Shown: piece after piece, positions 7,161 to 21,768 of the stretch
Layout of the letters: every line of letters begins with the position of its first letter
How positions within the stretch are numbered: position 1 is the first letter of the stretch
IMG/VR virus record: IMGVR_UViG_3300001487_000076
Span: 1 to 36,742 of that record
DNA length: 36,742 nucleotides
Direction: 5' to 3' (one strand)
Origin: a virus
Translations under genes and position numbers: made by a program
Notes under the pieces: generated by a model
What the model was told of the DNA's origin: nothing
Databases searched by the model: none
What the model saw: the letters and a program-made list of their open reading frames with translations, nothing else

Positions 7161-7287
7161 AATATTAGCCTCCTAAAATTAGATTTATACAGTTAGTCAC
7201 GGGCTTGTAACCGTCTGACTGGCTGCATTAAGGGCGTATAATACACCCCTACTCTGCATTATTAGCTATATGATTTGTACTTTGTGA

Positions 7288-7596: not shown

Positions 7597-7693
7597 AATA
7601 ATGACCTCCTAAAATTAGAATTATGGTTGCACTTTTCAGCGGATTTACGCTAAATTGTACATATAGCGGTATCAGAATCAGCTCTAATACCGC

Positions 7694-7722
7694 TTGACAA
7701 AATGCTATAATTTGAGTATAAT
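7694..7722 (+). promoter_or_regulatory. consensus sigma-A promoter (rightward) firing into noncoding DNA
   Basis: TTGACA (7694-7699), a 17-nt spacer aaatgctataatttgag, then TATAAT (7717-7722). There is no RBS-preceded plus-strand ORF downstream before the terminator at about 8260-8288; the longest is 25 codons. Confidence 0.65.
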
Positions 7723-7974
7723 TATAGCATAGAATTATTGTAATTAGTAGTCCGTACAAATTTTTTACCGCAATACGGCTCACGCCTTAACGCCTCTTTA
7801 CAGAGTCGGGACTACCTAAAAATTTTTCAAAAAGTCCCTTTATTCAGCTATTTTTCGGTATTAGCTATTTTATTTCACCGTCTATGTTTTAAGGTAATAC
7901 CGCACAAAATTAGTGTTATTGTACAGTAAGAACATAGTACCTATTGACAACATCAACTTTGTCACGCTGTACAG

Positions 7975-8003
7975 ATTATACAGAAGAGATATTGCACTGT
8001 TAC
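7975..8003 (-). promoter_or_regulatory. possible internal leftward promoter
   Basis: The minus strand reads GTAACA (8003-7998), a 17-nt spacer, then TATAAT (7980-7975). The -35 matches 4 of 6 positions. Confidence 0.3.
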
Positions 8004-8236
8004 GGCACTGTTTATTTTGCGTGGACTGCTCCACGGTATAAGCGTTGAAACTTTTTCAAGTCGCTTATAGCGGAAAATTGTTTATTTTCGGCTGCTATAC
8101 TTTGGCAATAGCTGCCTGCCATGTTATTAGGCACGTTGGCACACGCCCCGTACACTTGCATTATAACTAACGGTGTACGTCCCTATGATATACCGTAATA
8201 CCACAAAATTTGCGGCGTTAACTGAATTCTTTTAGC

Positions 8237-8288
8237 GTCCCGTATCAAGTCGGGACGTTGGAGCTTTTTGTTGCTCCGTGTTTTGTTT
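8237..8288 (+). terminator. tandem hairpins plus T-run (intrinsic terminator, plus strand)
   Basis: cgtcccg-tatcaagt-cgggacg, then ggagc-tttttgtt-gctcc, followed by gtgttttgttt. Confidence 0.5.
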
Positions 8289-8296
8289 ACAATGCT

Positions 8297-8325
8297 ATTA
8301 TACTACATGATTTTTACTTTGTCAA
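8297..8325 (-). promoter_or_regulatory. consensus sigma-A promoter (leftward), about 700 nt upstream of the first leftward gene
   Basis: The minus strand reads TTGACA (8325-8320), a 17-nt spacer aagtaaaaatcatgtag, then TATAAT (8302-8297). The spacer is homologous to those of the 1824 and 9652 promoters. Confidence 0.7.
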
Positions 8326-8640
8326 CGATTTTTGAAAAGTTTTTTAGTTTTGGATGGTTGCACAAAAAACTTTAGTGTGTTAAATTGAATAATTGTGCAA
8401 TAAGCAATAAGATTTTAGTGTATTAAAGTGTTTGTGTGAATACAGTTTGTAATATTATATTTGTTTTATACTGTTCGTCATAGTATGAGTAGTATACTAT
8501 TATAATATAAAAGAGACGTGTTGTGCATATTATACAATGAGAAGTAAATATTTTTGTGCAGTTTTTAATGAGTTTTCAACAATTGGCTGTCTGAGCTGAG
8601 AAAAACGGCTATTTTTTGACTTTTTTTGAAGTGCCATAAA

Positions 8641-8813
8641 TGGCTATATATAGGGAAAAAATAAACATTTTTTGAGCGTTTTTTTCAAGTCTGATTTTGA
8701 GCAGTTTTTTATGTTTTATTATTTAATTAATAGTGAATATTTTTGCATTTTTATGAATATTTGTTATGTGTATATTGATTTTTGGCTATTTATAGGGATT
8801 TATTGAGCGTTTT
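8641..8813. repeat. direct repeat modules TGGCTATWTATAGGGA ... TTGAGCGTTTT
   Basis: TGGCTATATATAGGGA (8641-8656) is followed by TTGAGCGTTTTT (8672-8683) and TTGAGCAGTTTT (8697-8708). TGGCTATTTATAGGGA (8783-8798) is followed by TTGAGCGTTTT (8803-8813). Confidence 0.7.
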
Positions 8814-8817
8814 GTAT

Positions 8818-8860
8818 ATGAATATTCATGTTTATTATTGTTATGTGTTGCAATTGCAAC
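8818..8860. repeat. two perfect palindromes
   Basis: ATGAATATTCAT (8818-8829) and GTTGCAATTGCAAC (8847-8860). Confidence 0.8.
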
Positions 8861-8864
8861 AAAA

Positions 8865-9085
8865 TAATTAAAGGGAGTTAATCTTTTAAGTATAAATTTA
8901 ATTAAAGCATTAGATAAATTAATCTTAATCGTTTAATTATATAATAACTTAATTAAGCTGCATTTAAGCTCTTAAATTAAGTGCTTAAATAATCAATGTT
9001 TAATTAATTTTTCACTTAAATGATTACCATCAAATAGAACAGTCGTTCTTTTTATTAAATATCTTAATTACTTAAAATGAACAAA
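8865..9085. repeat. extremely AT-rich tract with reiterated TTAATTAA / CTTAAAT-type motifs (candidate DNA-unwinding element)
   Basis: Many copies of taattaa, cttaatt, cttaaat and tttaatta lie within about 220 bp, with no ORF. Confidence 0.6.
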
Positions 9086-9200
9086 ACGGAAATTAAACGG
9101 CGGTAAATAGGCAAATACGGCACTTTGTAAAAATTATATACGGGGTATGTTTACATTTTAAATCAAATTTCGCTGCCGGAATACTGGGTAAGGTGTTCTA

Positions 9201-9290
9201 CTCCATTCACACCAGCTCACACCAATTCACACCAATTTACCCCAACTCATACCACACCACATCACTCCATTATCCCTACATCTCCCTATA
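9201..9290 (+). repeat. nine phased 10-bp units (ACCAAYTCAC-like, then TNTCCCTAYA x2), iteron-like
   Basis: Successive 10-mers read ctccattcac, accagctcac, accaattcac, accaatttac, cccaactcat, accacaccac, atcactccat, tatccctaca, tctccctata. The top strand has one G between 9201 and 9318. Confidence 0.8.
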
Positions 9291-9488
9291 TTAATTATCA
9301 TTCACTTCCCAATATATAGCCATAAACTAATTATTAAAATATCGCATAAATAATCATATCAGATTTTCAAATCCTTAATAAATCCCAATAATACGCTAAA
9401 AAATAGAAAAGCAATATACACTCTAATAACAGATATATAAGATAATTAAATTAGGAAAAGGGGTTTGGGGAAAGGGCAAAGGTCAACT

Positions 9489-9609
9489 GAGCGTAGCGAA
9501 GTTTACCGTCCCTGTCCCCAATATAGTAAATATTAAATATTAAATAGTAAATATTAAATTATAATTCTATAACTCTATAATATATCCCCCTATCTCACTC
9601 GCTACGCTC
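9489..9609. repeat. 11-bp perfect inverted repeat flanking an AT-rich tandem repeat
   Basis: GAGCGTAGCGA (9489-9499) pairs with TCGCTACGCTC (9599-9609). The interior contains agtaaatattaaat twice. Confidence 0.75.
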
Positions 9610-9614
9610 GTTCG

Positions 9615-9648
9615 TCCCCCAGAGGGGGATTTTATTTTTTTATTTTTT
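9615..9648 (+). terminator. intrinsic terminator
   Basis: tccccc-aga-ggggga is followed by ttttatttttttatttttt, immediately upstream of the 9652 promoter. Confidence 0.65.
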
Positions 9649-9651
9649 CTC

Positions 9652-9680
9652 TTGACAAAGTATAAATATTATGATATAAT
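9652..9680 (+). promoter_or_regulatory. consensus sigma-A promoter (rightward) for the Rep-like operon
   Basis: TTGACA (9652-9657), a 17-nt spacer aagtataaatattatga, then TATAAT (9675-9680). Confidence 0.75.
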
Positions 9681-9868
9681 AGGATTAGTACACAGGTGAG
9701 CTATTTTTATATTTGTTCATTGTATAAATCATATAGATTGAATAAATCATATAGTTCAAGTGTCTGTACCCTTGGCAAGCGTATGGGGTTTACTAAATCT
9801 AAAAGAACGGATTTTTCAAAAAACGCCAGTTTAGCCCGATTTTTCGGGAAAAACTGCAAATTGGGTGA

Positions 9869-11568: not shown

Positions 11569-11625
11569 TGTGCATTTCACATTAACATTCACTATGATTT
11601 TGTGATATAGGAGGAATTAAATAAA

Positions 11626-12207
11626 TTGAATAGCAAACGTAAACACATATGTGGCGTATATTCAATCACAAATAATATTAACGAGAAGTGTTATATCGGA
11701 CAAAGTATAGATGTCTATTCTCGTTGGCTTAGTCATAAAAACCCTAAACAATGGCAGGCTGAAAAAAGTAAAGCATTATATCGAGCGTTTCGTAAATATG
11801 GTGTTGAAAACTTTACCTTTAGAATAATTGAGGAATGTCCAAGAGAACAACTTGATAGTCGTGAAAAATTCTGGATTTCTTATTACGATTCTTATAAGAA
11901 TGGATATAATATGAACGAAGGTGGACAGGGACAAAATCGAAATTATCATCGTAGGTGGTTACATAGACGTAAAAACGAATTTGCTCGAAGGCTTGATATG
12001 TTTATAGGTGATTCCGAAAAGGAGTTCCCAGACATACAAAGTGTATTTGCAGAAATGAGAATGGCTGTTTGCCCAGATGTTTATAACTTGGATGATATTG
12101 AGGATGATTGTATTCGTGAAGAAATTGACGGGTATGATACGATGATGCGTGTGCTTTGTGATGGTTATGATAGTTACGAACAATGGGCTGAATGTACTTT
12201 TATATAA
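11626..12207 (+). CDS. GIY-YIG homing endonuclease (free-standing, 193 aa)
   Basis: It has a TTG start 9 nt after AGGAGG. ICGVYSITNNINEKCYIGQSIDVYSRWLSHK carries the GIY...YIG...R..H motif. REKFWISYYDSYKNGYNMNEGG supplies the conserved Glu and Asn. Confidence 0.8.
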   Translation: MNSKRKHICGVYSITNNINEKCYIGQSIDVYSRWLSHKNPKQWQAEKSKALYRAFRKYGVENFTFRIIEECPREQLDSREKFWISYYDSYKNGYNMNEGGQGQNRNYHRRWLHRRKNEFARRLDMFIGDSEKEFPDIQSVFAEMRMAVCPDVYNLDDIEDDCIREEIDGYDTMMRVLCDGYDSYEQWAECTFI

Positions 12208-12226
12208 AAAAACAGAGGTGACAAAA

Positions 12227-15091
12227 ATGGACAAGAATAAATATAATAGCGTATATATACTTAGTGTCGAAGCAAAAGACCTTTATGCTGCAAAAAAATA
12301 TGTCAATCCAATACTCGATGAACAAACAAATAATATTATTGGATATGTTAATATGAACCTTAAACATTGGAAGAATACACTTGATTTTAGCCTTGACCTT
12401 GTTAAACTCCGTGAAGTAGCATATAAACATTATCGTAATAGAAAATCTTTTTTCTTTGATAAAGATTTGAATAAGGAATTTACTCAACGTGTAATAAACG
12501 TAGACTTTAATTTAGCGTACAAAGAATGGAATCGTCATGGTGACATTTATATTCGTAACGGCTATGGAATGGCTGACATAAAAAGTGTGGGTAAATTTGG
12601 AGATAGAACGTTTTACAAGGATGGTATTTGCATTGGTATTAAAGTAGGAAATATAACAGACGAAGATAATAATGTTGTATGGGAAAACATTCCAAAATAC
12701 TTTAAGTATGAAAAAGAAAACAAAGTAATTAAAGTTGATAAAACGATTCCTACGCTTATGAGCAGAAGCGAACTTAGGCACGACCTTTATGAAAACGGCT
12801 TTATATGTAATGGCATAAAGTATGTTAGATATAAGCGTTCTTCTGGAAGTAGTAGGGTGGGTAAATGTTTGTTTATTGACGAGGAACTTTATCCTGTTAT
12901 GCATGAATGGGAACTATGCGGTCTTAATATCAGAGAGGGAGATAAGATAGACCTTGCTGCATTTGAAGCGTACATTTCATTACCATCAAGTAGTTGCATT
13001 GATACTCTTGAAATAAAACCAGAGAACATTCTTGTTATAGACGATTTTGAGTCTGTGTTTGAAGATGATGTTGTAGCAGTCTATGGCGAAGGAGAAAACT
13101 TTGTGGCTAAAGAAGAACGTGCTACAATTAGGAACAGTATTTGGGATGGACAGAGCCTACTTGACATCAGTATGTATAGCGAGTATTATACAGACAAAAC
13201 TATGTTGCTTCTTAGAAACAGATTCTTTAAAAGTGCTTGCTTTAAGACTAAGATACAGGATTGGTTTAGAGACAATAATATTACTGACGTATCTCAGCTT
13301 AAAGGTTATACCAGAGCAACCTGCATAGAGGATATTAAACTTATTACTACTCCGTCCAGTATTAAGTATGTAAAGTTTGGCACAATTGAGCAATGGCTTG
13401 ACAATCTCTATCCGACTTTCGGGATAGTGAAGTACGAAAAGCCAACTAAGTATCTTGACGGTAGAATGGTTCAGTGTCACTATCAACTCTTAAATTCATT
13501 GCAGTTGACCAGAGAGGATATACAAGAATTGATACAACCCAATTTCGACTATCTTAATCTAATTCGTAAAGACCCAGCCGTCATGAGGTATCATTTGAAA
13601 TACCCATATTCATTAGCTGACAATGATGAACCTTGTTATACGAGAGATGAAGTTGTTATGAAAGTAATGGGAATGAATAGTAAGTTCGTAGACACGAAAC
13701 TTTATAATGAGTTTCGCAGAAAACTTACCGAATCTATTCTCAAAGAATATCGTAAGGGTCATATCTGGGTTAGTGGCAATTACGAGACTCTTATAGGCAA
13801 TGGAGTGGAAATGCTTCAATCAGCAATCGGAATATTTAACGGGGAAAGCGTTCTTGGTGTAGGTAATGTACATACTAAGAGATTTGATTATGGTACAACA
13901 ATTCTCGGAACTCGTTCACCACATATTAATTCAGGAGATGTTTTGCTTGCCAATAACGTAGAGAGTGATATAATAGACAGATACTTTGTGTCGAGCAGCG
14001 AGGTTGTTCATATTAATAGTATTGGCGAAAATATACTTCAACGCTTACAAGGAGCAGATTTTGATAGTGACTCTATTCTTCTTACCGACAATCAAATACT
14101 TATTAATGCCGCTCGAAAAAACTATCATACATTCAAAGTGCCTACGAGTTTCATAGAAGCTAAAAAGATTCAATGGACATATGATAGTAATTCAAAAGCC
14201 AAGCTGGACATTAACACAAGTGTAAACCTAATAGGTCAAATCGTTAATCTTTCACAGTATCTCAATTCGGTTATGTGGGAACGTATATACAATGATGTGA
14301 GTGATGGCGTAAGCAATGAAATTGCTATAAAAAATCAATCTGCGTTATATAATGACATTTGTATTTTGTCGAGTGCTTCGGGTGCGGAGATAGATAAAGC
14401 TAAAAAAACGTTTGATGTAAATACTTCAAAAATGCTCAATATGCTTAAAGAACGGTATGGTGTTTATACAAAAGTCAATGGCAAGGACAAGTTTACAAAA
14501 CCACTATTTTTCAAGAATATTACAATTAACAATGGATATTCTCTTAATCCCAATCATTACTTTAGAGCGTTTGAGACATCTATGGATTATTTACAAAAAG
14601 CGATTAATGGATTTAGAGCAGACAAAATTAAAGTCAAGAATTTACCGTTTTGTGAAATAATCAAGCCCATTGATATTGATTGGAATAAAGTTGGCACAAC
14701 TCAATATATAAAAGTAAATCAGGTAATAGATAGTATTAAAGAGTGTCGAAATCAAATTAGGCAATTGTACTCTGATTATAGTACCAAATCAAAAGATGAA
14801 AAAATAATAATTACAAATGAGGTCAACTTGGTTCGTAATAAATGCGTAGATATAATTTCAAGTAAAAGATATATTGACGTTGAATTATATTTGCTTCTTA
14901 AAGAAATAGATAAAAACAAAAATGCTGGATATTCAAGAACTATATTTGACATTTTGTTCTCTACAGGAAACGCAGACCTCTATAACATGATAAGAGATAC
15001 GTCCGATGGCATTTACAAAATTACAAAGAAAACAAATGATAATTGTGTAGTGCTTTTTGAGAATTTATATTTCAAACAAAAAATAGGCTAA
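12227..15091 (+). CDS. YonO / QDE-1-like single-subunit two-barrel RNA polymerase (954 aa)
   Basis: Track ORF 12149..15091, trimmed to the ATG at 12227, which follows AGAGGTGACAAAA. TRSPHINSGDVLLANNVE, about 27 aa, then LQGADFDSDSILLTDN (nt 13913-14092) mirrors the catalytic DPBB layout RSPxxxPxD...GGDxDGD of cellular-type RdRPs/YonO and NADFDGD of beta-prime. KYVRYKRSSGSSRVGKCLFIDEELY resembles the second conserved RdRP block. Confidence 0.65.
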   Translation: MDKNKYNSVYILSVEAKDLYAAKKYVNPILDEQTNNIIGYVNMNLKHWKNTLDFSLDLVKLREVAYKHYRNRKSFFFDKDLNKEFTQRVINVDFNLAYKEWNRHGDIYIRNGYGMADIKSVGKFGDRTFYKDGICIGIKVGNITDEDNNVVWENIPKYFKYEKENKVIKVDKTIPTLMSRSELRHDLYENGFICNGIKYVRYKRSSGSSRVGKCLFIDEELYPVMHEWELCGLNIREGDKIDLAAFEAYISLPSSSCIDTLEIKPENILVIDDFESVFEDDVVAVYGEGENFVAKEERATIRNSIWDGQSLLDISMYSEYYTDKTMLLLRNRFFKSACFKTKIQDWFRDNNITDVSQLKGYTRATCIEDIKLITTPSSIKYVKFGTIEQWLDNLYPTFGIVKYEKPTKYLDGRMVQCHYQLLNSLQLTREDIQELIQPNFDYLNLIRKDPAVMRYHLKYPYSLADNDEPCYTRDEVVMKVMGMNSKFVDTKLYNEFRRKLTESILKEYRKGHIWVSGNYETLIGNGVEMLQSAIGIFNGESVLGVGNVHTKRFDYGTTILGTRSPHINSGDVLLANNVESDIIDRYFVSSSEVVHINSIGENILQRLQGADFDSDSILLTDNQILINAARKNYHTFKVPTSFIEAKKIQWTYDSNSKAKLDINTSVNLIGQIVNLSQYLNSVMWERIYNDVSDGVSNEIAIKNQSALYNDICILSSASGAEIDKAKKTFDVNTSKMLNMLKERYGVYTKVNGKDKFTKPLFFKNITINNGYSLNPNHYFRAFETSMDYLQKAINGFRADKIKVKNLPFCEIIKPIDIDWNKVGTTQYIKVNQVIDSIKECRNQIRQLYSDYSTKSKDEKIIITNEVNLVRNKCVDIISSKRYIDVELYLLLKEIDKNKNAGYSRTIFDILFSTGNADLYNMIRDTSDGIYKITKKTNDNCVVLFENLYFKQKIG

Positions 15092-16259: not shown

Positions 16260-17680
16260 CAAAGAAAAACGATAAAGTAAAAATTGAAATGGTTGGCAAA
16301 TCAGCAGATGGTGTAACTGGTTCAATGTATTATATTACTTTTAACGACAAACAAATCTTATTAGATGCTGGCTTGTATCAAACAAGTGGAGATGATATTC
16401 TCAAACAGTACAAGGTCAATCATAGAAATTACAAAGTTCCTTTTTCTAATCTTAATGCTGTGGTTATCAGTCATTTTCATACAGACCATTGTGGGCTTAT
16501 CCCCTACTTGTTTGCTCGTGGTTATCGTGGTAGTGTTTATGTTCCTAAAGGCAATAAACCACTTGCTCGTGTTATGTGGGAAGATAGCCTTAAAATATTT
16601 GAGAGCGATTGTATAAAACTTGAAAGGCGATATGGAATCAACACAGCTCCATTATACACACAGAAAGATATTGAAATTGCTCTTGAACATTTAGTTGAAT
16701 TACCATTTGGCAAGACCACTTTTTTATTTGATGACCTTGCTATAAAGTATTACCACGCAAGCCATATAATAAATGCAGCACAAGTGCATTTAACATTTAG
16801 GTTGGGAGAGACAATTAAAACACTTGGGTTTACAGGCGATATAGGTTCGGATATTAAAAAGGATTATCTTTTACCGTATGAACGACTCCCCTACTGTGAT
16901 GTATTACTGGCTGAGTGTACTTATGGTGGTAGTCACAAGACACATAAGCAGAAAGACAGAGACAAAGACCTTGAAAAAATAAAGTGTGTGGTCGACCAGT
17001 GCTGTCAACACGACACTCAAAAGGTTTTATTTGGCTCGTTCTCACTCAATAGATTACAGGATATTCTAACAACACTGTATAAGATATATGGCGATGATGA
17101 AACGTTTGCAACGCCCATAATAATTGACGCACCACTTGGTATGAAAATATCTGCCTTATGGGATGGGATTATAGAGAAAGATTATGACCTGTGGAAGAAA
17201 GTGTCGGCATGGAAGAACATCGTGTGGGTTAATACTTACGAAGAATCTCAGGAGTGGCAAAAGCTAAAAACTTCTCAGGTAATTATTAGTACATCAAATT
17301 TTTTAAAGAACGGACGAGTAGTTTCTTGGCTTAAATCTATATTGCCAAATGAGAACGCTCGTGTGATGCTGTGCGGTTACGCTGGTGATGAAGATAGCGT
17401 TGCCTATCAAATTCAGCATAGTAAGAAGTGGGTGACAATAGATGGTGAGCGTGTGAGAAGCAGAGCTAATATAATACAGCTTACATCATTTTCAAGTCAT
17501 GCTTGTAGAAGTGAATTATTACAGAGATATACCAATGCACAGTATAACAAAATTTACCTTGTTCATTCTGAGGGCAATGGCAAACAGGAATTTGCAAAAA
17601 TGCTCCGTGACAATTTAAGTAAGGCAGATAGGAGTGCAAAGGTTCACACGCCAGTAATGGGCGATAAGATAAGTTTTTAA
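16256..17680 (+). CDS. metallo-beta-lactamase fold, beta-CASP-type nuclease (RNase J / CPSF73 / SNM1-like, 474 aa)
   Basis: VISHFHTDHCG carries the HxHxDH motif. The C-terminal LTSFSSHACRSELL resembles beta-CASP motif B/C (SxHA). The start overlaps the ClpP stop as ATGA. Confidence 0.7.
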   Translation: MTKKNDKVKIEMVGKSADGVTGSMYYITFNDKQILLDAGLYQTSGDDILKQYKVNHRNYKVPFSNLNAVVISHFHTDHCGLIPYLFARGYRGSVYVPKGNKPLARVMWEDSLKIFESDCIKLERRYGINTAPLYTQKDIEIALEHLVELPFGKTTFLFDDLAIKYYHASHIINAAQVHLTFRLGETIKTLGFTGDIGSDIKKDYLLPYERLPYCDVLLAECTYGGSHKTHKQKDRDKDLEKIKCVVDQCCQHDTQKVLFGSFSLNRLQDILTTLYKIYGDDETFATPIIIDAPLGMKISALWDGIIEKDYDLWKKVSAWKNIVWVNTYEESQEWQKLKTSQVIISTSNFLKNGRVVSWLKSILPNENARVMLCGYAGDEDSVAYQIQHSKKWVTIDGERVRSRANIIQLTSFSSHACRSELLQRYTNAQYNKIYLVHSEGNGKQEFAKMLRDNLSKADRSAKVHTPVMGDKISF

Positions 17681-17716
17681 AAAAATGCGATTATGTGGAA
17701 AAGGAGAGAAATAAAT

Positions 17717-17896
17717 ATGGCGAAATCAAGTATCGTAGAAAAGAACGCAATAACCATAAAGGGTATACTTGGTATTAATGACAATATAATTGTTGTTGAA
17801 CTTGAAGATGGACAGGCAGTTGAACTTGCATCTATTCTCAGTCATTTTGATGGTGCTGATGTAACAATCAGTGTTTCAAATACTGTAGAGAGATAA
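17717..17896 (+). CDS. small protein (59 aa), possibly YonK-like
   Basis: Track ORF 17693..17896, trimmed to the ATG at 17717, which follows AAAGGAGAGAAATAAAT. The pattern ITIKGILG...VVELEDGQAVELASILSHFDGADVTISV resembles my recollection of SPbeta YonK. The family call is tentative. Confidence 0.55.
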   Translation: MAKSSIVEKNAITIKGILGINDNIIVVELEDGQAVELASILSHFDGADVTISVSNTVER

Positions 17897-18076
17897 TGGG
17901 GAGGAATTTTTATAAAAGACAAGTTTACTAAAGAGCAACTTCGAGCTATCTATGAAGTTTGTTCTAAAAAAGAATTTTATAAAGATTGGAACGAAGTAGC
18001 TGATATACTTAATAAGCGTTTCGGAACTGAATATTCTGAGAGCTGTTTTAGAAAGGCGTGGCAATATTTCGACAGA

Positions 18077-19108
18077 ATGTATTCTGCTTGTAAGGATATA
18101 TTCACATCAAGCAATGATGCTTGTAAGGAATTGGAAATTAAGAGTCGTGAGCTTCGCAAAGAACGAATGAAGTTACAGACTGCAAACTTAGAGCGAAATC
18201 GTCTTGACCGAAATGAAGCAAGACAGGAACTTTATTATGAGCAGATAGGTTCTTTGTGCCAGACTTTGCCTGTACCAGAGTTCGTTCCCTATTGTGGTGA
18301 CACAAAGAATGGTATAACCTATGTGGTTGCGATAAGCGACCAGCATTATGGAGCTACATTTGAAAGTGAACGAAATGCATATTCGCCAGATATTTTTAAG
18401 GAAAGACTTGAATATTTAACTGGTAAATTAATTTCATTTATCACAAACAAAAGGGTGAACAAGCTGGTTGTAACTTCTCTGGGGGACAGCCTACAGGGTA
18501 TTCTCAGAATGTCTGACCTTGCAATAAACGATACTGCTGTTGTTAAAGCGGTTGTTGATTATAGCAGATTAATTGCTCAGTTTCTAAATGAGCTTTCTCA
18601 ATATGCTGATATATCTTATTATCACGTTCCTACTGCTAATCATACTCAGATTAGACCTTTAAACAGCAAGGCGAGCGAAATAGCTACTGAGGATTTGGAA
18701 TATGTTATTGGTAACTATATTAAAGATATACTTACAAGCAATCCAAGAGTAACTGTTAATCTTGCTGACAACGGTAAACAGTATATAAAAATCGAAGATG
18801 TATTTGGGTTTGACGTTTATGCTTTGCACGGACATCAAATAAAGAACCCAGAGGGTGTAATTAGTAATTTGAATACCCTTATTAATTCAAATGTTGATGC
18901 TGTTCTCATGGGGCATTATCACGGTGGTAAAGAGACTACAGTTGGAGAAGGGGTTACACATGATTACGAGGTTTTAATAGCTCCATCGTTTATTGGTTCT
19001 GACCCATACTCGGATAGTTTATTTACTGGTTCAAAAGGAGCTGTAAAGATTTATGGCTTTGATGAACTTTATGGTCATACAGAGTCTTATAAAATAATAT
19101 TAAATTAG
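18077..19108 (+). CDS. calcineurin-like metallophosphoesterase (Mre11/SbcD-type fold); the true N-terminus probably lies about 60 codons upstream
   Basis: Motifs seen are VVAISDQHYG (DxH), SLGDSLQG (GD), TANHTQ (GNH-like), ALHGH and GHYHGG (GHxH). The frame is open and protein-like from 17897, but the first canonical start is 18077 (see findings). Confidence 0.7.
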   Translation: MYSACKDIFTSSNDACKELEIKSRELRKERMKLQTANLERNRLDRNEARQELYYEQIGSLCQTLPVPEFVPYCGDTKNGITYVVAISDQHYGATFESERNAYSPDIFKERLEYLTGKLISFITNKRVNKLVVTSLGDSLQGILRMSDLAINDTAVVKAVVDYSRLIAQFLNELSQYADISYYHVPTANHTQIRPLNSKASEIATEDLEYVIGNYIKDILTSNPRVTVNLADNGKQYIKIEDVFGFDVYALHGHQIKNPEGVISNLNTLINSNVDAVLMGHYHGGKETTVGEGVTHDYEVLIAPSFIGSDPYSDSLFTGSKGAVKIYGFDELYGHTESYKIILN

Positions 19109-19121
19109 GGTGGTGATTGAT

Positions 19122-19544
19122 ATGACCATATCAGAATCTATGTGCAAAGAGTACAATGAGTATAATGAACTTATATCTGAATTTGTACGTTCTGCAATGG
19201 AAAACGGTTCTGTTTTTCTTATAGTGAATTGGCAGGATGCACTTGGCGTGTGTCAGTTGCTTAATACTTTTACCATTAATGGCAAAAGTGTTGTTATGAA
19301 GCGTGAGTTTGCGGACGAAGCGTATGCTGAAATTGAAGAAGTCAAACAGTATGACGGCAATATGCTGATTACTTTGTTTGATGACGGAGAAATGATTTGC
19401 GAAAAGGCTTTAAGTGACGAGTCTGCGTATGTGGATGACGGTGTGTATTTTGTGGAATATAGTGCAAAGGATTTTGTTTTACCTTTACACGCAAAGGTTG
19501 TGCCGTTTAAAATTAAAACTCAGATTTTTGAGAATGTATTTTGA
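19122..19544 (+). CDS. hypothetical acidic protein (140 aa)
   Basis: Track ORF 19110..19544. I prefer the ATG at 19122, 8 nt after AGGGTGG. Confidence 0.6.
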   Translation: MTISESMCKEYNEYNELISEFVRSAMENGSVFLIVNWQDALGVCQLLNTFTINGKSVVMKREFADEAYAEIEEVKQYDGNMLITLFDDGEMICEKALSDESAYVDDGVYFVEYSAKDFVLPLHAKVVPFKIKTQIFENVF

Positions 19545-19569
19545 CTTTAAGTCGGCAATAGTCGACTAA

Positions 19570-19957
19570 AATAAAGTTCTTCCCAAAAGAGAGGGAAGTG
19601 AAATATATCTGTACACCCCGAAAGGGGTGATGAGTGATGAGCTTGGCAGTAAAGCGTTGTTACAGAGGATAGCAAAGTATTCAGTGCAAATCTGGAATCA
19701 CTCACCAACGTACCTACCACGCCTCTGTTGCAAGCGTACCACGGTAGGTCTTTTAAGACACAGCTCTTTACGAGCACTTTATGATGTTGAAAGGTTGTCA
19801 AGGCTTGCTTTGATAATCAATAATCAATGAGCCTTGCAAGCCTCTGTTATGCCTACAAGCTGACTACGCAAGGACTTTTATGGTTGCCACAACCTAATGT
19901 GGAAAGGCAAACCTGCACATTGGTAGGCTACGGACAAGTAGCAAACCAGTGCATTAC
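19570..19957 (+). ncRNA. candidate structured RNA domain immediately 5' of the tRNAs
   Basis: It is a chain of stable stems: cttccc/gggaag (19579-19598), cacccc-GAAA-ggggtg (19614-19629), long-range tgagtgat/atcactca (19631-38 with 19697-704), acctacc/ggtaggt (19712-49), aggcttgc/gcaagcct (19801-43), ggttgcc/ggcaaacc (19882-913) and gcac..tggt/acca..gtgc (19915-52). The two track ORFs here lack ribosome-binding sites. Confidence 0.35.
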
Positions 19958-20033
19958 CACGGAGTGGAGAAGTGGCTAACTCACCAGATTTTCATTCTGG
20001 CACTCGCAGGTTCAAATCCTGTCTCCGTGACCA
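19958..20033 (+). tRNA. tRNA-Glu (anticodon UUC), CCA encoded
   Basis: Manual cloverleaf. The acceptor stem is cacggag/ctccgtg. The D arm is gag(a)-agtggcta-(a)ctc. The anticodon stem ccaga/tctgg carries the loop ttTTCat. The variable loop is cactc. The T arm is gcagg-ttcaaat-cctgt, followed by discriminator a and cca. Confidence 0.8.
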
Positions 20034-20142
20034 ACGAGCATTATGCTCTACTCGCTGTGCGAGGCTCTATTTTAGAGTAAACGTTCCCGATAATACGTTG
20101 CTTAGCCACCTTTATGGTAAATCGGTGTAAAAAGAGCTATGT

Positions 20143-20216
20143 GGCAGTTTGGTGAAACGGTATCATATAAGGTTCATACCCTTATGTTCCAAGTTCAACT
20201 CTTGGGGCTGCAACCA
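20143..20216 (+). tRNA. tRNA-Met-type (anticodon CAU; could be Ile2 if lysidinylated), CCA encoded
   Basis: Manual cloverleaf. The acceptor stem ggcagtt/ggctgca has G1-A72 unpaired and two G-U pairs. The D arm is gtga-aacggta-tcat. The anticodon stem taagg/cctta carries the loop ttCATac. The variable loop is tgtt. The T arm is ccaag-ttcaact-cttgg, followed by a and cca. Confidence 0.7.
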
Positions 20217-20439
20217 AATAGAGGGTAGGATTTTAGGATTCTACGAGAGATGAAAACCGCCTCTCCGCTGTACTTGCAGTAGTAGGTATTCGGGACAAGT
20301 CCTGCAAAGCCACAAGTTATATTTACTGACATCATCATAATACTTATTTCCTCCTATGGGGAGTTCACCTCCCCTATTAGTAACCAATCATTGCAAAGAT
20401 ATGAAAGGTTGCAACCATAAAAATAAAAGGAGAGAAATA

Positions 20440-20631
20440 ATGCCTGAGTATAATTACATTTGTCCAAATTGTGACAATAAATTTTCTGTAGAGAAAAAGA
20501 TTAGCGAATATAATCCGCACGAACAATGCCCTATATGCAAAACGGATGCAAACAGGGACATGACAACAAATTATTGTAATGGTAATTACGTTGTTAAATG
20601 TACTGGGTTTTATGGAAAGCACTCTACATAA
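20440..20631 (+). CDS. FmdB-like zinc-ribbon small protein (63 aa)
   Basis: Track ORF 20356..20631, trimmed to the ATG at 20440, which follows AAAGGAGAGAAATA. MPEYNYICPNCDNKFSVEKKISEYNPHEQCPICK carries CxxC...CxxC. Confidence 0.65.
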   Translation: MPEYNYICPNCDNKFSVEKKISEYNPHEQCPICKTDANRDMTTNYCNGNYVVKCTGFYGKHST

Positions 20632-20643
20632 GGAGGAATAAAA

Positions 20644-21768
20644 ATGGCTGGTCGTGGTAGACCTAAAGGCTCAAAGTCAAAAAAAAATACGACAACTGTA
20701 AGAAAGACTTGTACTAATTGCAATAGAGAATTACCGTTGAGTAGCTTTTATGTTGCTTCAAATCCTTTTACTTCAAGTGATGGTAAAAGAGTTAATGTTT
20801 GTAAGGATTGTATTAAGATATGCTCTACAAACCCAGATGGAACAATAAATGCTGATTCGTTCAAGAATATGCTTATGCTGATTGACCGTCCTTTTGTTCC
20901 AAGGATATTAGATATAGCGATAAAAGAATCAGAAAAAACTTGTAGTGATAATGCTGTTAGAACAGATGTAGTTGGATTATATATGAAGAATATATCCAGT
21001 TTAATTCCCTATTCTAAAATGACATTTGCCGATGGCGAGAACTACAAGGAAGATAAACCAACTAATTCAAATTCAGTACGTTATTCTGTTGTAGAAAGAA
21101 CTAATAGAGGAAAAGAAGAAGCGGTCTTTATTAATGAAAATATTGATTTTGACTTAACCGAAGATATTGTTGATAGATTCGGTGAAGGATATACCAAAAG
21201 TCAATATGCTAAAATGCAAAAAAAGTATGACAAGCTAAAGCAGAACTATCAGTTAACAACAAATCTTCACGAAGAAGCTCTTGCAACATATGTTAGATTT
21301 AAAGTTAGAGAAGAAGAAGCGACAGCAAATGGAGATGTGGAGAGTGCAAACAAATGGAATAAAGCGGCACAGGATGCTGCTGAAAAAGCCAAGCTTACCC
21401 CAAAACAATTGACACAGGCTGACTTGCAAGGTGGTATAACTACTATTAGCGAAATATCTAAAGCAGTTGAAGAAGCTGCTGATATTATAGAGATATTACC
21501 AAGATTCAAATACGCTCCTAACGATGCACCAGATTTTATAATTTGGTGCTATATTAATTTCTGCCGTAAATTAAAAGGCTTACCAGAAGTTGATTATGAA
21601 GAAGTTTATAAATTCTACGACAGAAAGAAAGAGGAATATATTGCACAGTATGGCGACCCATATGGTATCTTTACAGATGATACTTCTGAAAAAAACCGAG
21701 AAGCTGTAAAAAAATTTATTCAATTGCCGAAAGACTACAATGTAGGAAGTGATACCGATGGCGAATGA
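20644..21768 (+). CDS. Zn-ribbon-containing protein in the terminase small-subunit position (374 aa)
   Basis: An AAGGAGGAATAAAA ribosome-binding site is present. The N-terminus has basic AT-hook-like GRGRPKGSK followed by CTNCN...CKDC. It lies immediately upstream of terL and overlaps it. The role is inferred from position only. Confidence 0.35.
   Translation: MAGRGRPKGSKSKKNTTTVRKTCTNCNRELPLSSFYVASNPFTSSDGKRVNVCKDCIKICSTNPDGTINADSFKNMLMLIDRPFVPRILDIAIKESEKTCSDNAVRTDVVGLYMKNISSLIPYSKMTFADGENYKEDKPTNSNSVRYSVVERTNRGKEEAVFINENIDFDLTEDIVDRFGEGYTKSQYAKMQKKYDKLKQNYQLTTNLHEEALATYVRFKVREEEATANGDVESANKWNKAAQDAAEKAKLTPKQLTQADLQGGITTISEISKAVEEAADIIEILPRFKYAPNDAPDFIIWCYINFCRKLKGLPEVDYEEVYKFYDRKKEEYIAQYGDPYGIFTDDTSEKNREAVKKFIQLPKDYNVGSDTDGE

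Follow-up and report, generated by a model that had tools for sequence, protein, structure and literature searches.

A phage tRNA array with abiF-class hairpins as candidate decoy antitoxins against AbiF

We analysed 36,742 nt of viral DNA (IMG/VR record IMGVR_UViG_3300001487_000076, positions 1 to 36,742; hereafter the window), which is part of a ~110-kb tailed phage, with a focus on the hairpin-dense block at 19545-20439. Positions are those of the window, and features lie on its plus strand unless stated otherwise. Very probably, this block is a plus-strand cassette array of small RNA genes and one of its hairpins, hairpin 1, belongs to the abiF class. The array contains two transfer RNAs (tRNAs), one tRNA-like cloverleaf, two abiF-class hairpins and two further conserved modules. 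In the type III toxin-antitoxin/abortive infection system built on the HEPN RNase AbiF, abiF RNA acts as the antitoxin, and AbiF is a proposed ancestor of Cas13 (PMC12373285; reviews PMC12737573, PMC13064643). Because the block holds hairpins of the AbiF antitoxin class, the phage may carry its own antidote to a host defence, and on balance we modestly favour the full model of a tRNA/small-RNA array with candidate anti-AbiF decoy antitoxins. An original prediction, made from the letters of the sequence, had read the block as a candidate large structured RNA of the ROOL/GOLLD kind; its observation was partly confirmed and its interpretation partly supported.

Hairpin 1 (19712-19750) was Rfam's only non-tRNA lead. 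The abiF model (RF03085) matched 19713-19749 across all 37 model positions at 29.0 bits (E 0.0086), which is under its gathering score of 37; the core of this hairpin is also seen upstream of Abi_2 genes elsewhere. The outer stem P1 (ACCUACC/GGUAGGU) is accompanied by a bulged A, an inner stem P2 (CGC/GCG), a loop starting with CUCU and the internal loop UACCAC, and the tail, UCUUUUAA, is U-rich. Hairpin 2 (19831-19875) is built from P1 CCUUGC/GCAAGG, a bulged A, P2 AGC/GCU, a 17-nt loop that also starts with CUCU, a 3' internal loop GACUAC and a U-rich tail. Both hairpins have the abiF consensus structure and its conserved unpaired nucleotides, hairpin 2 departing from them by its longer loop and by GACUAC. 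A repeat, GCCTCTGTT, had already been spotted in the original prediction at 19721 and 19840. It is indeed present at both positions, because the two hairpins share the abiF plan; what had been missed is that the repeats mark two hairpins of the abiF antitoxin class.

We also built a covariance model of our own (R1), with hairpin 1 in the training set and hairpin 2 left out. In the 36.7-kb window, R1 gave exactly two matches with E < 0.1, each of them inside the block and on the strand of the tRNAs. Hairpin 1, as a training sequence, scored 55 bits, while hairpin 2, from outside the training set, scored 25.8 bits (E 1e-5), and both aligned to all 39 positions of the model. Two non-tRNA units of the block can be assigned to a known antitoxin class, abiF. 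Module C, another conserved element of the block (described below), was tried as a third abiF-like hairpin and gave no R1 match. A mini-hairpin, GCUC-UUUAC-GAGC (19763-19775), travels with hairpin 1 and sits upstream or downstream of it depending on the relative; in three loci (L004, L010 and L011; L numbers are our labels for individual loci) the piece 19754-19778, aligned by BLAST, precedes the counterpart of hairpin 1.

To see the hairpin beyond the window, we scanned IMG/VR with the core ACGCCTCT-N(6-14)-GCGTACCAC, leaving the outer stem unconstrained. The scan returned at least 119 viral loci, including 43 distinct 39-mers and many different outer stems. The free flanks form seven consecutive pairs in 76 of these at least 119 loci, and the largest group that does not pair is one repeated flank sequence with 26 matches. 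Among 30 distinct sequences, which had been pre-selected for at least six outer-stem pairs, 99.7% of cells pair and 8/10 pairs show compensatory change, which is extensive in the outer stem (slid controls gave 14-39% paired); because of this pre-selection, the flank-pairing count is the unbiased figure.

The hairpins are often found beside tRNAs. Across 60 distinct contexts, 22 lie within 60 nt of a same-strand tRNA, 4 within 500 nt of one, 8 directly upstream of an AbiF homologue and 26 elsewhere; the background in the core loci is 1.95% of positions within 100 nt of a same-strand tRNA. The homologues were identified with a local AbiF hidden Markov model (HMM) that we built from five of the open reading frames (ORFs) downstream of the core; three of these were scanned against Pfam and match Abi_2 (PF07751) at E 1e-50 to 1e-55. 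In every AbiF-linked copy, the RNA lies 23-39 nt upstream of the gene or overlaps the start of the open frame, and two such copies score 46.5 and 42.1 bits with Rfam's abiF model. One 39-mer occurs in identical form upstream of AbiF (L089, L114) and, without AbiF, 14 nt from a tRNA-Met (L128), where it scores 48.0 bits.

Closer to the window, a third version of the hairpin (CUCAAC/GUUGAG) occurs 8-10 nt after a tRNA-Asn in related phages whose TerL is ~70% identical. The hairpin of L027, at the same position as hairpin 1, reaches 38.0 bits and passes the RF03085 gathering score of 37. The exact hairpin-1 type was found at 12 metagenomic loci, all of them similar phage arrays. The GACUAC subtype, to which hairpin 2 belongs, occurs with a normal 11-nt loop elsewhere: it follows the last tRNA of the array by ~10-25 nt in L243, L255, L288 and L355, and AbiF is absent beside all four.

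Some other arrangements of these hairpins were recorded along the way. In L027 (1569-3083) and the L034-L084 group, the order is tRNA-Asn, a threshold-passing abiF hairpin, a degenerate abiF-like hairpin and a tyrosine integrase; the degenerate second hairpin of L027 (CCUCAC..GUGAGG) lies at about 1781-1815, and this tRNA and hairpin region may also be an attachment-site neighbourhood. In two of the 12 metagenomic arrays, two canonical UACCAC-type hairpins stand in tandem, ~35 nt apart: L371 (~8975-9071) and L379 (~1412-1508), with the GCUC-UUUAC-GAGC mini-hairpin between them, an arrangement that resembles the two-motif antitoxin RCd22. An unannotated abiF-type hairpin is also present in the cultured lytic T7-like Aeromonas phage vB_AhaP_PT2 (L365, 41 kb; OM716005.1, 15322-15360), where it lies between the portal and scaffold genes; the 5 kb of this phage that we examined contain no AbiF gene. 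Partial matches to the abiF-type hairpin also came from related phages of Aeromonas and Salicola.

Neither hairpin of the block lies directly upstream of an abiF gene. Pfam found no Abi_2 domain in 30 ORFs of the window (all those of at least 150 aa and several smaller ones), and the local HMM found no AbiF in six-frame translations of the window and of L001-L086. A 111-kb contig (ENA ERZ12302819 NODE_241) carries two window proteins exactly, and the precomputed Pfam matches over ~52 kb of it (8.8 to 61.3 kb) include no Abi_2. Within about half of the genome, then, the block presents type III antitoxin-like RNA with no cognate toxin gene.

A characterised relative is RCd22, a C. difficile antitoxin with two abiF motifs that binds AbiF directly and neutralises it in trans; this activity is lost when mutations break the stems and survives when the mutations are compensatory (PMC12373285). 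AbiF acts as a homodimer, and AbiF systems are found in prophages (PMC12373285). The noncoding RNA (ncRNA) of PbAbiF is also reported, in a review, to bind and neutralise AbiF (PMC12737573). The block hairpins share with abiF RNA (RF03085, RCd22 and AbiFr) a 6-7 bp outer stem, a bulged A, a 3-bp NGC/GCN inner stem, a CUCU loop start, a 6-nt 3' internal loop and a U-rich tail, and with RCd22 the presence of two hairpins. They differ in having no adjacent AbiF gene and in being embedded among tRNA and tRNA-like genes. Hairpin 1 is also sub-gathering, hairpin 2 (17-nt loop, GACUAC) is undetected by the Rfam model, and ~80 nt separate the two, compared with a motif spacing of 19 nt in RCd22.

Phages are known to use such mimicry: PhiTE escapes ToxIN through an antitoxin RNA mimic, pseudo-ToxI (PMC3594212). 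The logic is shared, namely a phage RNA that resembles a type III antitoxin without an accompanying toxin, but in PhiTE the toxin is ToxN rather than the HEPN protein AbiF, the RNA is another one, and escape is experimental, whereas the block is known from sequence alone. For AbiF itself, a hairpin of the phage sk1 cos region is described as an inhibitor (Rince et al. 2000, Zilberzwige-Tal et al. 2025, as summarised in the review PMC13064643). That RNA/DNA hairpin lies beside a packaging region, much as the block lies just upstream of terminase genes, but it is reported to be unlike AbiF ncRNA, which the block hairpins resemble (PMC13064643). Cyanophage S-CREM1 is reported to have a standalone abiF small RNA, for which no role was put forward (PMC9964418). 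The literature we covered holds no description of toxin-less abiF hairpins in phage tRNA arrays; Zilberzwige-Tal et al. fell outside this coverage, and an earlier description is possible.

We next consider the block as a whole. That the ~740 nt around the tRNAs form one large ornate RNA, of the ROOL or GOLLD kind or of a new class, was the idea of the original prediction, and the block does share with ROOL (RF03087) and GOLLD (RF01998) a Firmicutes phage or prophage setting and a tRNA neighbourhood. Its helices are dense, and folding is significantly stable relative to shuffles in 19545-19957 (z = -3.7 on the plus strand, -4.4 on the minus strand), with z = -2.8 for the trailer after the second tRNA. 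We nevertheless regard a single large RNA as highly improbable. Rfam gave no ROOL, GOLLD or other large family, either in the whole window at the gathering score or in 19300-20600 at E <= 10, and all it returned in the block was tRNAs, the one sub-threshold abiF match and noise. The conserved RNA of ROOL and GOLLD measures roughly 500-800 nt. The units of the block, by contrast, are at most 130 nt long, match these families in neither sequence nor structure, and form a mosaic. In a comparative set of 86 loci, gathered via their exonuclease and TerL proteins, we found the piece 19703-19758 in L002, L004, L007 and L011, the piece 19825-19956 in L003, L006, L013 and L026, and the piece 20213-20316 in L002, L003, L004, L006 and L011. 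These pieces and the tRNAs occur separately in the relatives, in varied order and beside varied neighbours and tRNAs, and therefore behave as cassettes and not as a single folded molecule. One contiguous conserved multi-domain architecture was not found among these relatives, where modules are shuffled, lost or swapped independently; tRNA bodies are exchanged while the spacers stay untouched, and the inter-tRNA spacer is neither conserved nor unusually stable.

Much of the predicted folding did reappear in our minimum free energy (MFE) fold, which contains the GAAA-capped stem at 19614-19629 and the stems at 19712-19749, 19882-19913 and 19915-19952. The pairing of 19631-19638 with 19697-19704, proposed as a long-range closing helix, is also in the MFE fold but is not long-range: it is the acceptor stem of the tRNA-like cloverleaf at 19632-19707, and once this is recognised no long-range helix remains. 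Two other proposals fell away. The stem at 19801-19843 is confined to the window and its sister L001 and competes with the conserved hairpin 2, and the four mini-hairpins between the tRNAs do not exceed shuffled sequences in stability (z = -1.1) and are not conserved in L013. Of the fallback options offered for the block, degenerate tRNA remnants hold for one tRNA-like cloverleaf and the spacers do carry conserved, covariation-supported small RNA structures, but a new large class does not emerge. For annotation, the lesson is to look first for small antitoxin-like modules in hairpin-dense gaps beside phage tRNAs, and to propose a large ornate RNA only afterwards.

As predicted, the block contains a tRNA-Glu (UUC; 19958-20033; Rfam tRNA 59.7 bits) and a tRNA-Met (CAU; 20143-20216), on which ARAGORN and Rfam agree; both encode their CCA. 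The spacer between them (20034-20142), with its short hairpins, has z = -1.09 and is conserved only between the window and L001, L013 having a different one. L001 (IMGVR_UViG_3300021399_000009) shares 98.4% identity with the window over 9.9 kb. The spacers of the block are nearly identical in this sister phage, whereas two units have been exchanged precisely from border to border: the tRNA-like unit (19632-19707) corresponds to a tRNA-Asn at L001 7556-7631, with identical flanks, and tRNA-Met (20143-20216) to a second tRNA-Glu at L001 8067-8141. The swapped units in both phages all end in an encoded CCA. Such exact border swaps point to rapid cassette-style turnover of the phage tRNAs.

The cloverleaf at 19632-19707 is non-canonical and ends in A-CCA. 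A search for cryptic tRNAs, as suggested with the original prediction, did recover it, with ARAGORN calling a tRNA-Leu(GAG) at the relaxed 80% threshold only; ARAGORN made no call at default settings, and the Rfam tRNA model (RF00005) gave no match at E <= 10. Canonical tRNAs have the near-universal tertiary nucleotides U8, A14, G18G19, U33 and T54-Psi55-C56. In this unit, G8, G14, U19, A33 and G55 replace near-universal bases, and it falls outside the tRNA family (RF00005) both by model detection and by tertiary nucleotides. Relatives in L013, L133, L216 and L229 have the same D-arm, a YGCAMAU T-loop and covarying acceptor and T stems. Over the five sequences, 100% of cells are paired and 8/16 pairs show compensatory change; a further copy, in L381, has an A-U in place of a G.U in the anticodon stem. 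Since the stems covary and are all paired among the relatives, comparison of these sequences indicates a maintained tRNA-like RNA and not random decay, with a possible role as a processing signal or decoy. A wider family for its D-arm was also sought; the viral scan gave mostly chance coding matches and four true relatives.

Two further modules make up much of the remaining block. Module B (19825-19957) is a conserved RNA of ~130 nt that ends at the 5' end of tRNA-Glu and consists of three hairpins, namely the abiF-like hairpin 2 (19831-19875), 19882-19913 and 19915-19952. Its copies are 90-95% identical in L003, L006 and L026 and 77% identical in L013, and the alignment fold shows compensatory change in 10/34 predicted pairs. 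Module C (20217-20316) is a conserved element of ~100 nt that starts directly after the CCA end of a tRNA in every case. We found 11 variants after different tRNAs, with both boundaries sharp whatever follows. Four local hairpins are predicted in it, its base changes are one-sided only, and it has no Rfam match.

This one-sided change, together with the high conservation of module C and its position (~330 nt before the small terminase-like gene at 20644 and 124 nt before the zinc-ribbon gene), would also fit an element conserved as DNA, such as a pac/cos or attachment site, and integrases do lie near the array in some relatives. Alternatively, the conserved part could be protein, in the form of a minus-strand ORF of 47 aa (20195-20338) antisense to module C. 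Contrary to the claim that all ORFs of the block lack a ribosome-binding site, this one starts with three consecutive ATG codons that are preceded, at a distance of 11 nt, by AGGAGG, and its frame is open in 7/10 relatives. We consider conservation as DNA or protein unlikely all the same. Coding is unlikely because the frame is broken in 3/10 relatives (L006, L221 and L321) and substitutions are spread 6/7/3 over the codon positions, with no third-position excess. Wherever module C occurs, moreover, it directly follows the 3' end of a tRNA, on the same strand as that tRNA and whatever comes after it, and the explanation is limited to module C and leaves the abiF-type hairpins unexplained.

The elements of the block, their structures and covariation, their class resemblance, the lack of a nearby toxin gene and the recurrent linkage to tRNAs are established here. 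The most likely function of the toxin-less hairpins, judged by analogy, is counter-defence against host AbiF. Transcription, processing, AbiF binding and the anti-defence effect are steps that we infer, and they might proceed as follows. The array would be transcribed together with the neighbouring plus-strand genes, and RNase P and the 3'-end tRNA processing enzymes would cut at the tRNA and tRNA-like units, freeing the spacer RNAs. The freed abiF-type hairpins could then bind the host AbiF dimer, which would stay inactive after the host's antitoxin supply fails in infection, so that abortive infection would be blocked. The two hairpins would match both the two-motif RCd22 and the homodimeric AbiF (PMC12373285).

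Several points weigh against this anti-AbiF reading. Hairpin 1, at 29.0 bits, stays below the gathering score of 37, and the Rfam abiF model does not report hairpin 2 at E <= 10, nor the GACUAC-type copies in L243, L255 and L355. Positions 19799-19806 can pair with the 5' half of the outer stem of hairpin 2, and this is the pairing chosen in the MFE fold of the longer RNA; such sequestration of hairpin 2 is possible in the window and in L001. The covariation set was, as mentioned, chosen for outer-stem pairing. Only weak consensus promoters were seen, at 19484-19513 and 19795-19824. The metagenome scan gave no cognate toxin with the hairpin 1 outer stem at the 12 loci of the exact type, and the host, which may or may not have AbiF, is approached only through prophage relatives in Lachnospiraceae and Lacrimispora, at 53-61% TerL identity. 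Lastly, the AbiF search covers about half of the ~110-kb genome, and a phage-borne AbiF elsewhere is possible.

This last point leads to a different view of the hairpins, as the antitoxin of an AbiF system that the phage itself encodes, with the toxin gene outside the window; the RNA would then help to exclude superinfecting phages or to maintain the genome. Prophages are indeed among the carriers of AbiF systems (PMC12373285), the RNA stands immediately before an AbiF homologue in eight viral contexts, and some relatives have integrases beside the array. Yet every AbiF-linked RNA that we found abuts its gene (23-39 nt upstream or overlapping the start), no Abi_2 turned up in the window, L001-L086 or the ~52 kb of the matching contig, and a toxin-less copy sits between the portal and scaffold genes of a lytic T7-like 41-kb Aeromonas phage, all of which make a self-antitoxin distinctly unlikely. 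The hairpins could instead have nothing to do with AbiF and be relics, or generic processing or stability elements of a tRNA operon, the block then being a tRNA precursor region with structured spacers. They do lie a few nt from tRNA ends and each is followed by a U-rich tail, and the tRNA cluster of T4 also encodes stable small RNAs (species 1 and 2), whose role is unassigned. The block resembles phage tRNA clusters of this kind in interleaving small non-tRNA RNAs with tRNAs and in a rapid turnover of tRNA content (exact cassette swaps, window vs L001); unlike the T4 RNAs, which have no assigned class, two of its non-tRNA units fall in a known antitoxin class. The bulged A, CUCU, UACCAC and the tail are single-stranded nucleotides that are conserved in the AbiF-linked copies, one 39-mer is identical in AbiF-linked and tRNA-linked settings, and compensatory change has preserved the stems across phages that share only ~70% TerL identity. 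Because stems and single-stranded nucleotides alike stay conserved, which is not expected of relics, we consider this explanation unlikely, if the more serious of the two, and prefer anti-AbiF decoys.

AbiF is a widespread abortive-infection toxin, yet phage evasion of it is barely known, the sk1 cos hairpin being the sole case we found. If toxin-less abiF decoys in tRNA arrays are functional, they would be a common and purely RNA-based counter-defence, and phage tRNA clusters would gain a second role beyond codon supply. We put forward a broader proposal only tentatively, and lean slightly against it: phage tRNA arrays may be expression and processing platforms for RNA anti-defence decoys. 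abiF hairpins would then have been placed repeatedly beside tRNAs in unrelated phages, to be freed against AbiF by tRNA processing, the base-for-base swaps of tRNA and tRNA-like units would be part of an arms race, and the tRNA-like family and module C would be further decoy or processing RNAs. Phage tRNAs themselves serve as counter-measures to tRNA-cleaving defences.

The phage has SPbeta-type Pfam families (YonD, YonB, YomW and YomV) on its structural genes. The relatives of its TerL, at 53-61% identity, are prophages in Lachnospiraceae and Lacrimispora genomes, and for this reason its host is probably a member of the Clostridia; the abiF-type hairpin is absent from these prophage relatives. 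At the DNA level, the whole block has no match among GenBank phages. Upstream of it lie a beta-CASP nuclease-like gene, an exonuclease and a 144-aa gene, and downstream a zinc-ribbon gene, a terminase-like pair, a portal gene and structural genes. The block is richer in GC than its flanks (0.43-0.47 vs 0.33-0.37), as had been apparent by eye, and the view that it is noncoding also stands: it has no conserved ORF. Protein coding was rejected here as six ORFs of 47-84 aa gave no match in a PHROG search and L001, the 98%-identical sister, does not retain the two longest of them. We also tested TTGCAANGATAT as a phage promoter motif and saw no enrichment.

The two ends of the block are also structured. 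The leader (19545-19631), itself one of the cassettes that recur among relatives, follows the stop codon of the 144-aa gene and forms three hairpins in the MFE fold, at 19550-19567, 19579-19598 and, GAAA-capped, 19614-19629. Aligned with L002/L004, the second of these shows a compensatory change from CTTCCC/GGGAAG to CTTGCC/GGCAAG and the third from CACCCC/GGGGTG to CGCCC/GGGCG. At the other end, the region 5' of the zinc-ribbon and terminase genes (20317-20439) has a conserved hairpin at 20358-20374, which reads GGGGAG/CTCCCC in the window and GGGCGG/CCGCCC in L013, as well as the ribosome-binding site of the gene starting at 20440. This gene (20440-20631) matches Zn_ribbon_8.

Elsewhere in the window, a type-P5 twister ribozyme (RF02684) lies at 7199-7258 on the minus strand, between genes of the minus-strand early block, and scores 45.8 bits against a gathering score of 37.6. 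Between the minus-strand and plus-strand gene blocks, ~2.2 kb (7600-9860) are AT-rich and nearly ORF-free, with short direct repeats (caccaattcacaccaatt... near 9200-9260 and aatattaaat near 9530-9560) and several GC-rich hairpins; this is probably a replication origin or regulatory region. A GIY-YIG homing-endonuclease-like ORF (11626-12207; PF01541, E 7e-11) lies upstream of, and overlaps, the start of a 980-aa gene. Beyond the start of the window, the matching contig (L366; ENA ERZ12302819 NODE_241, 11610-12620 and 17667-18683) encodes a GmrSD_N (DUF262) protein, a helix-turn-helix regulator and a faintly integrase-like protein, which hint at a temperate lifestyle and further defence-related cargo just outside the window.

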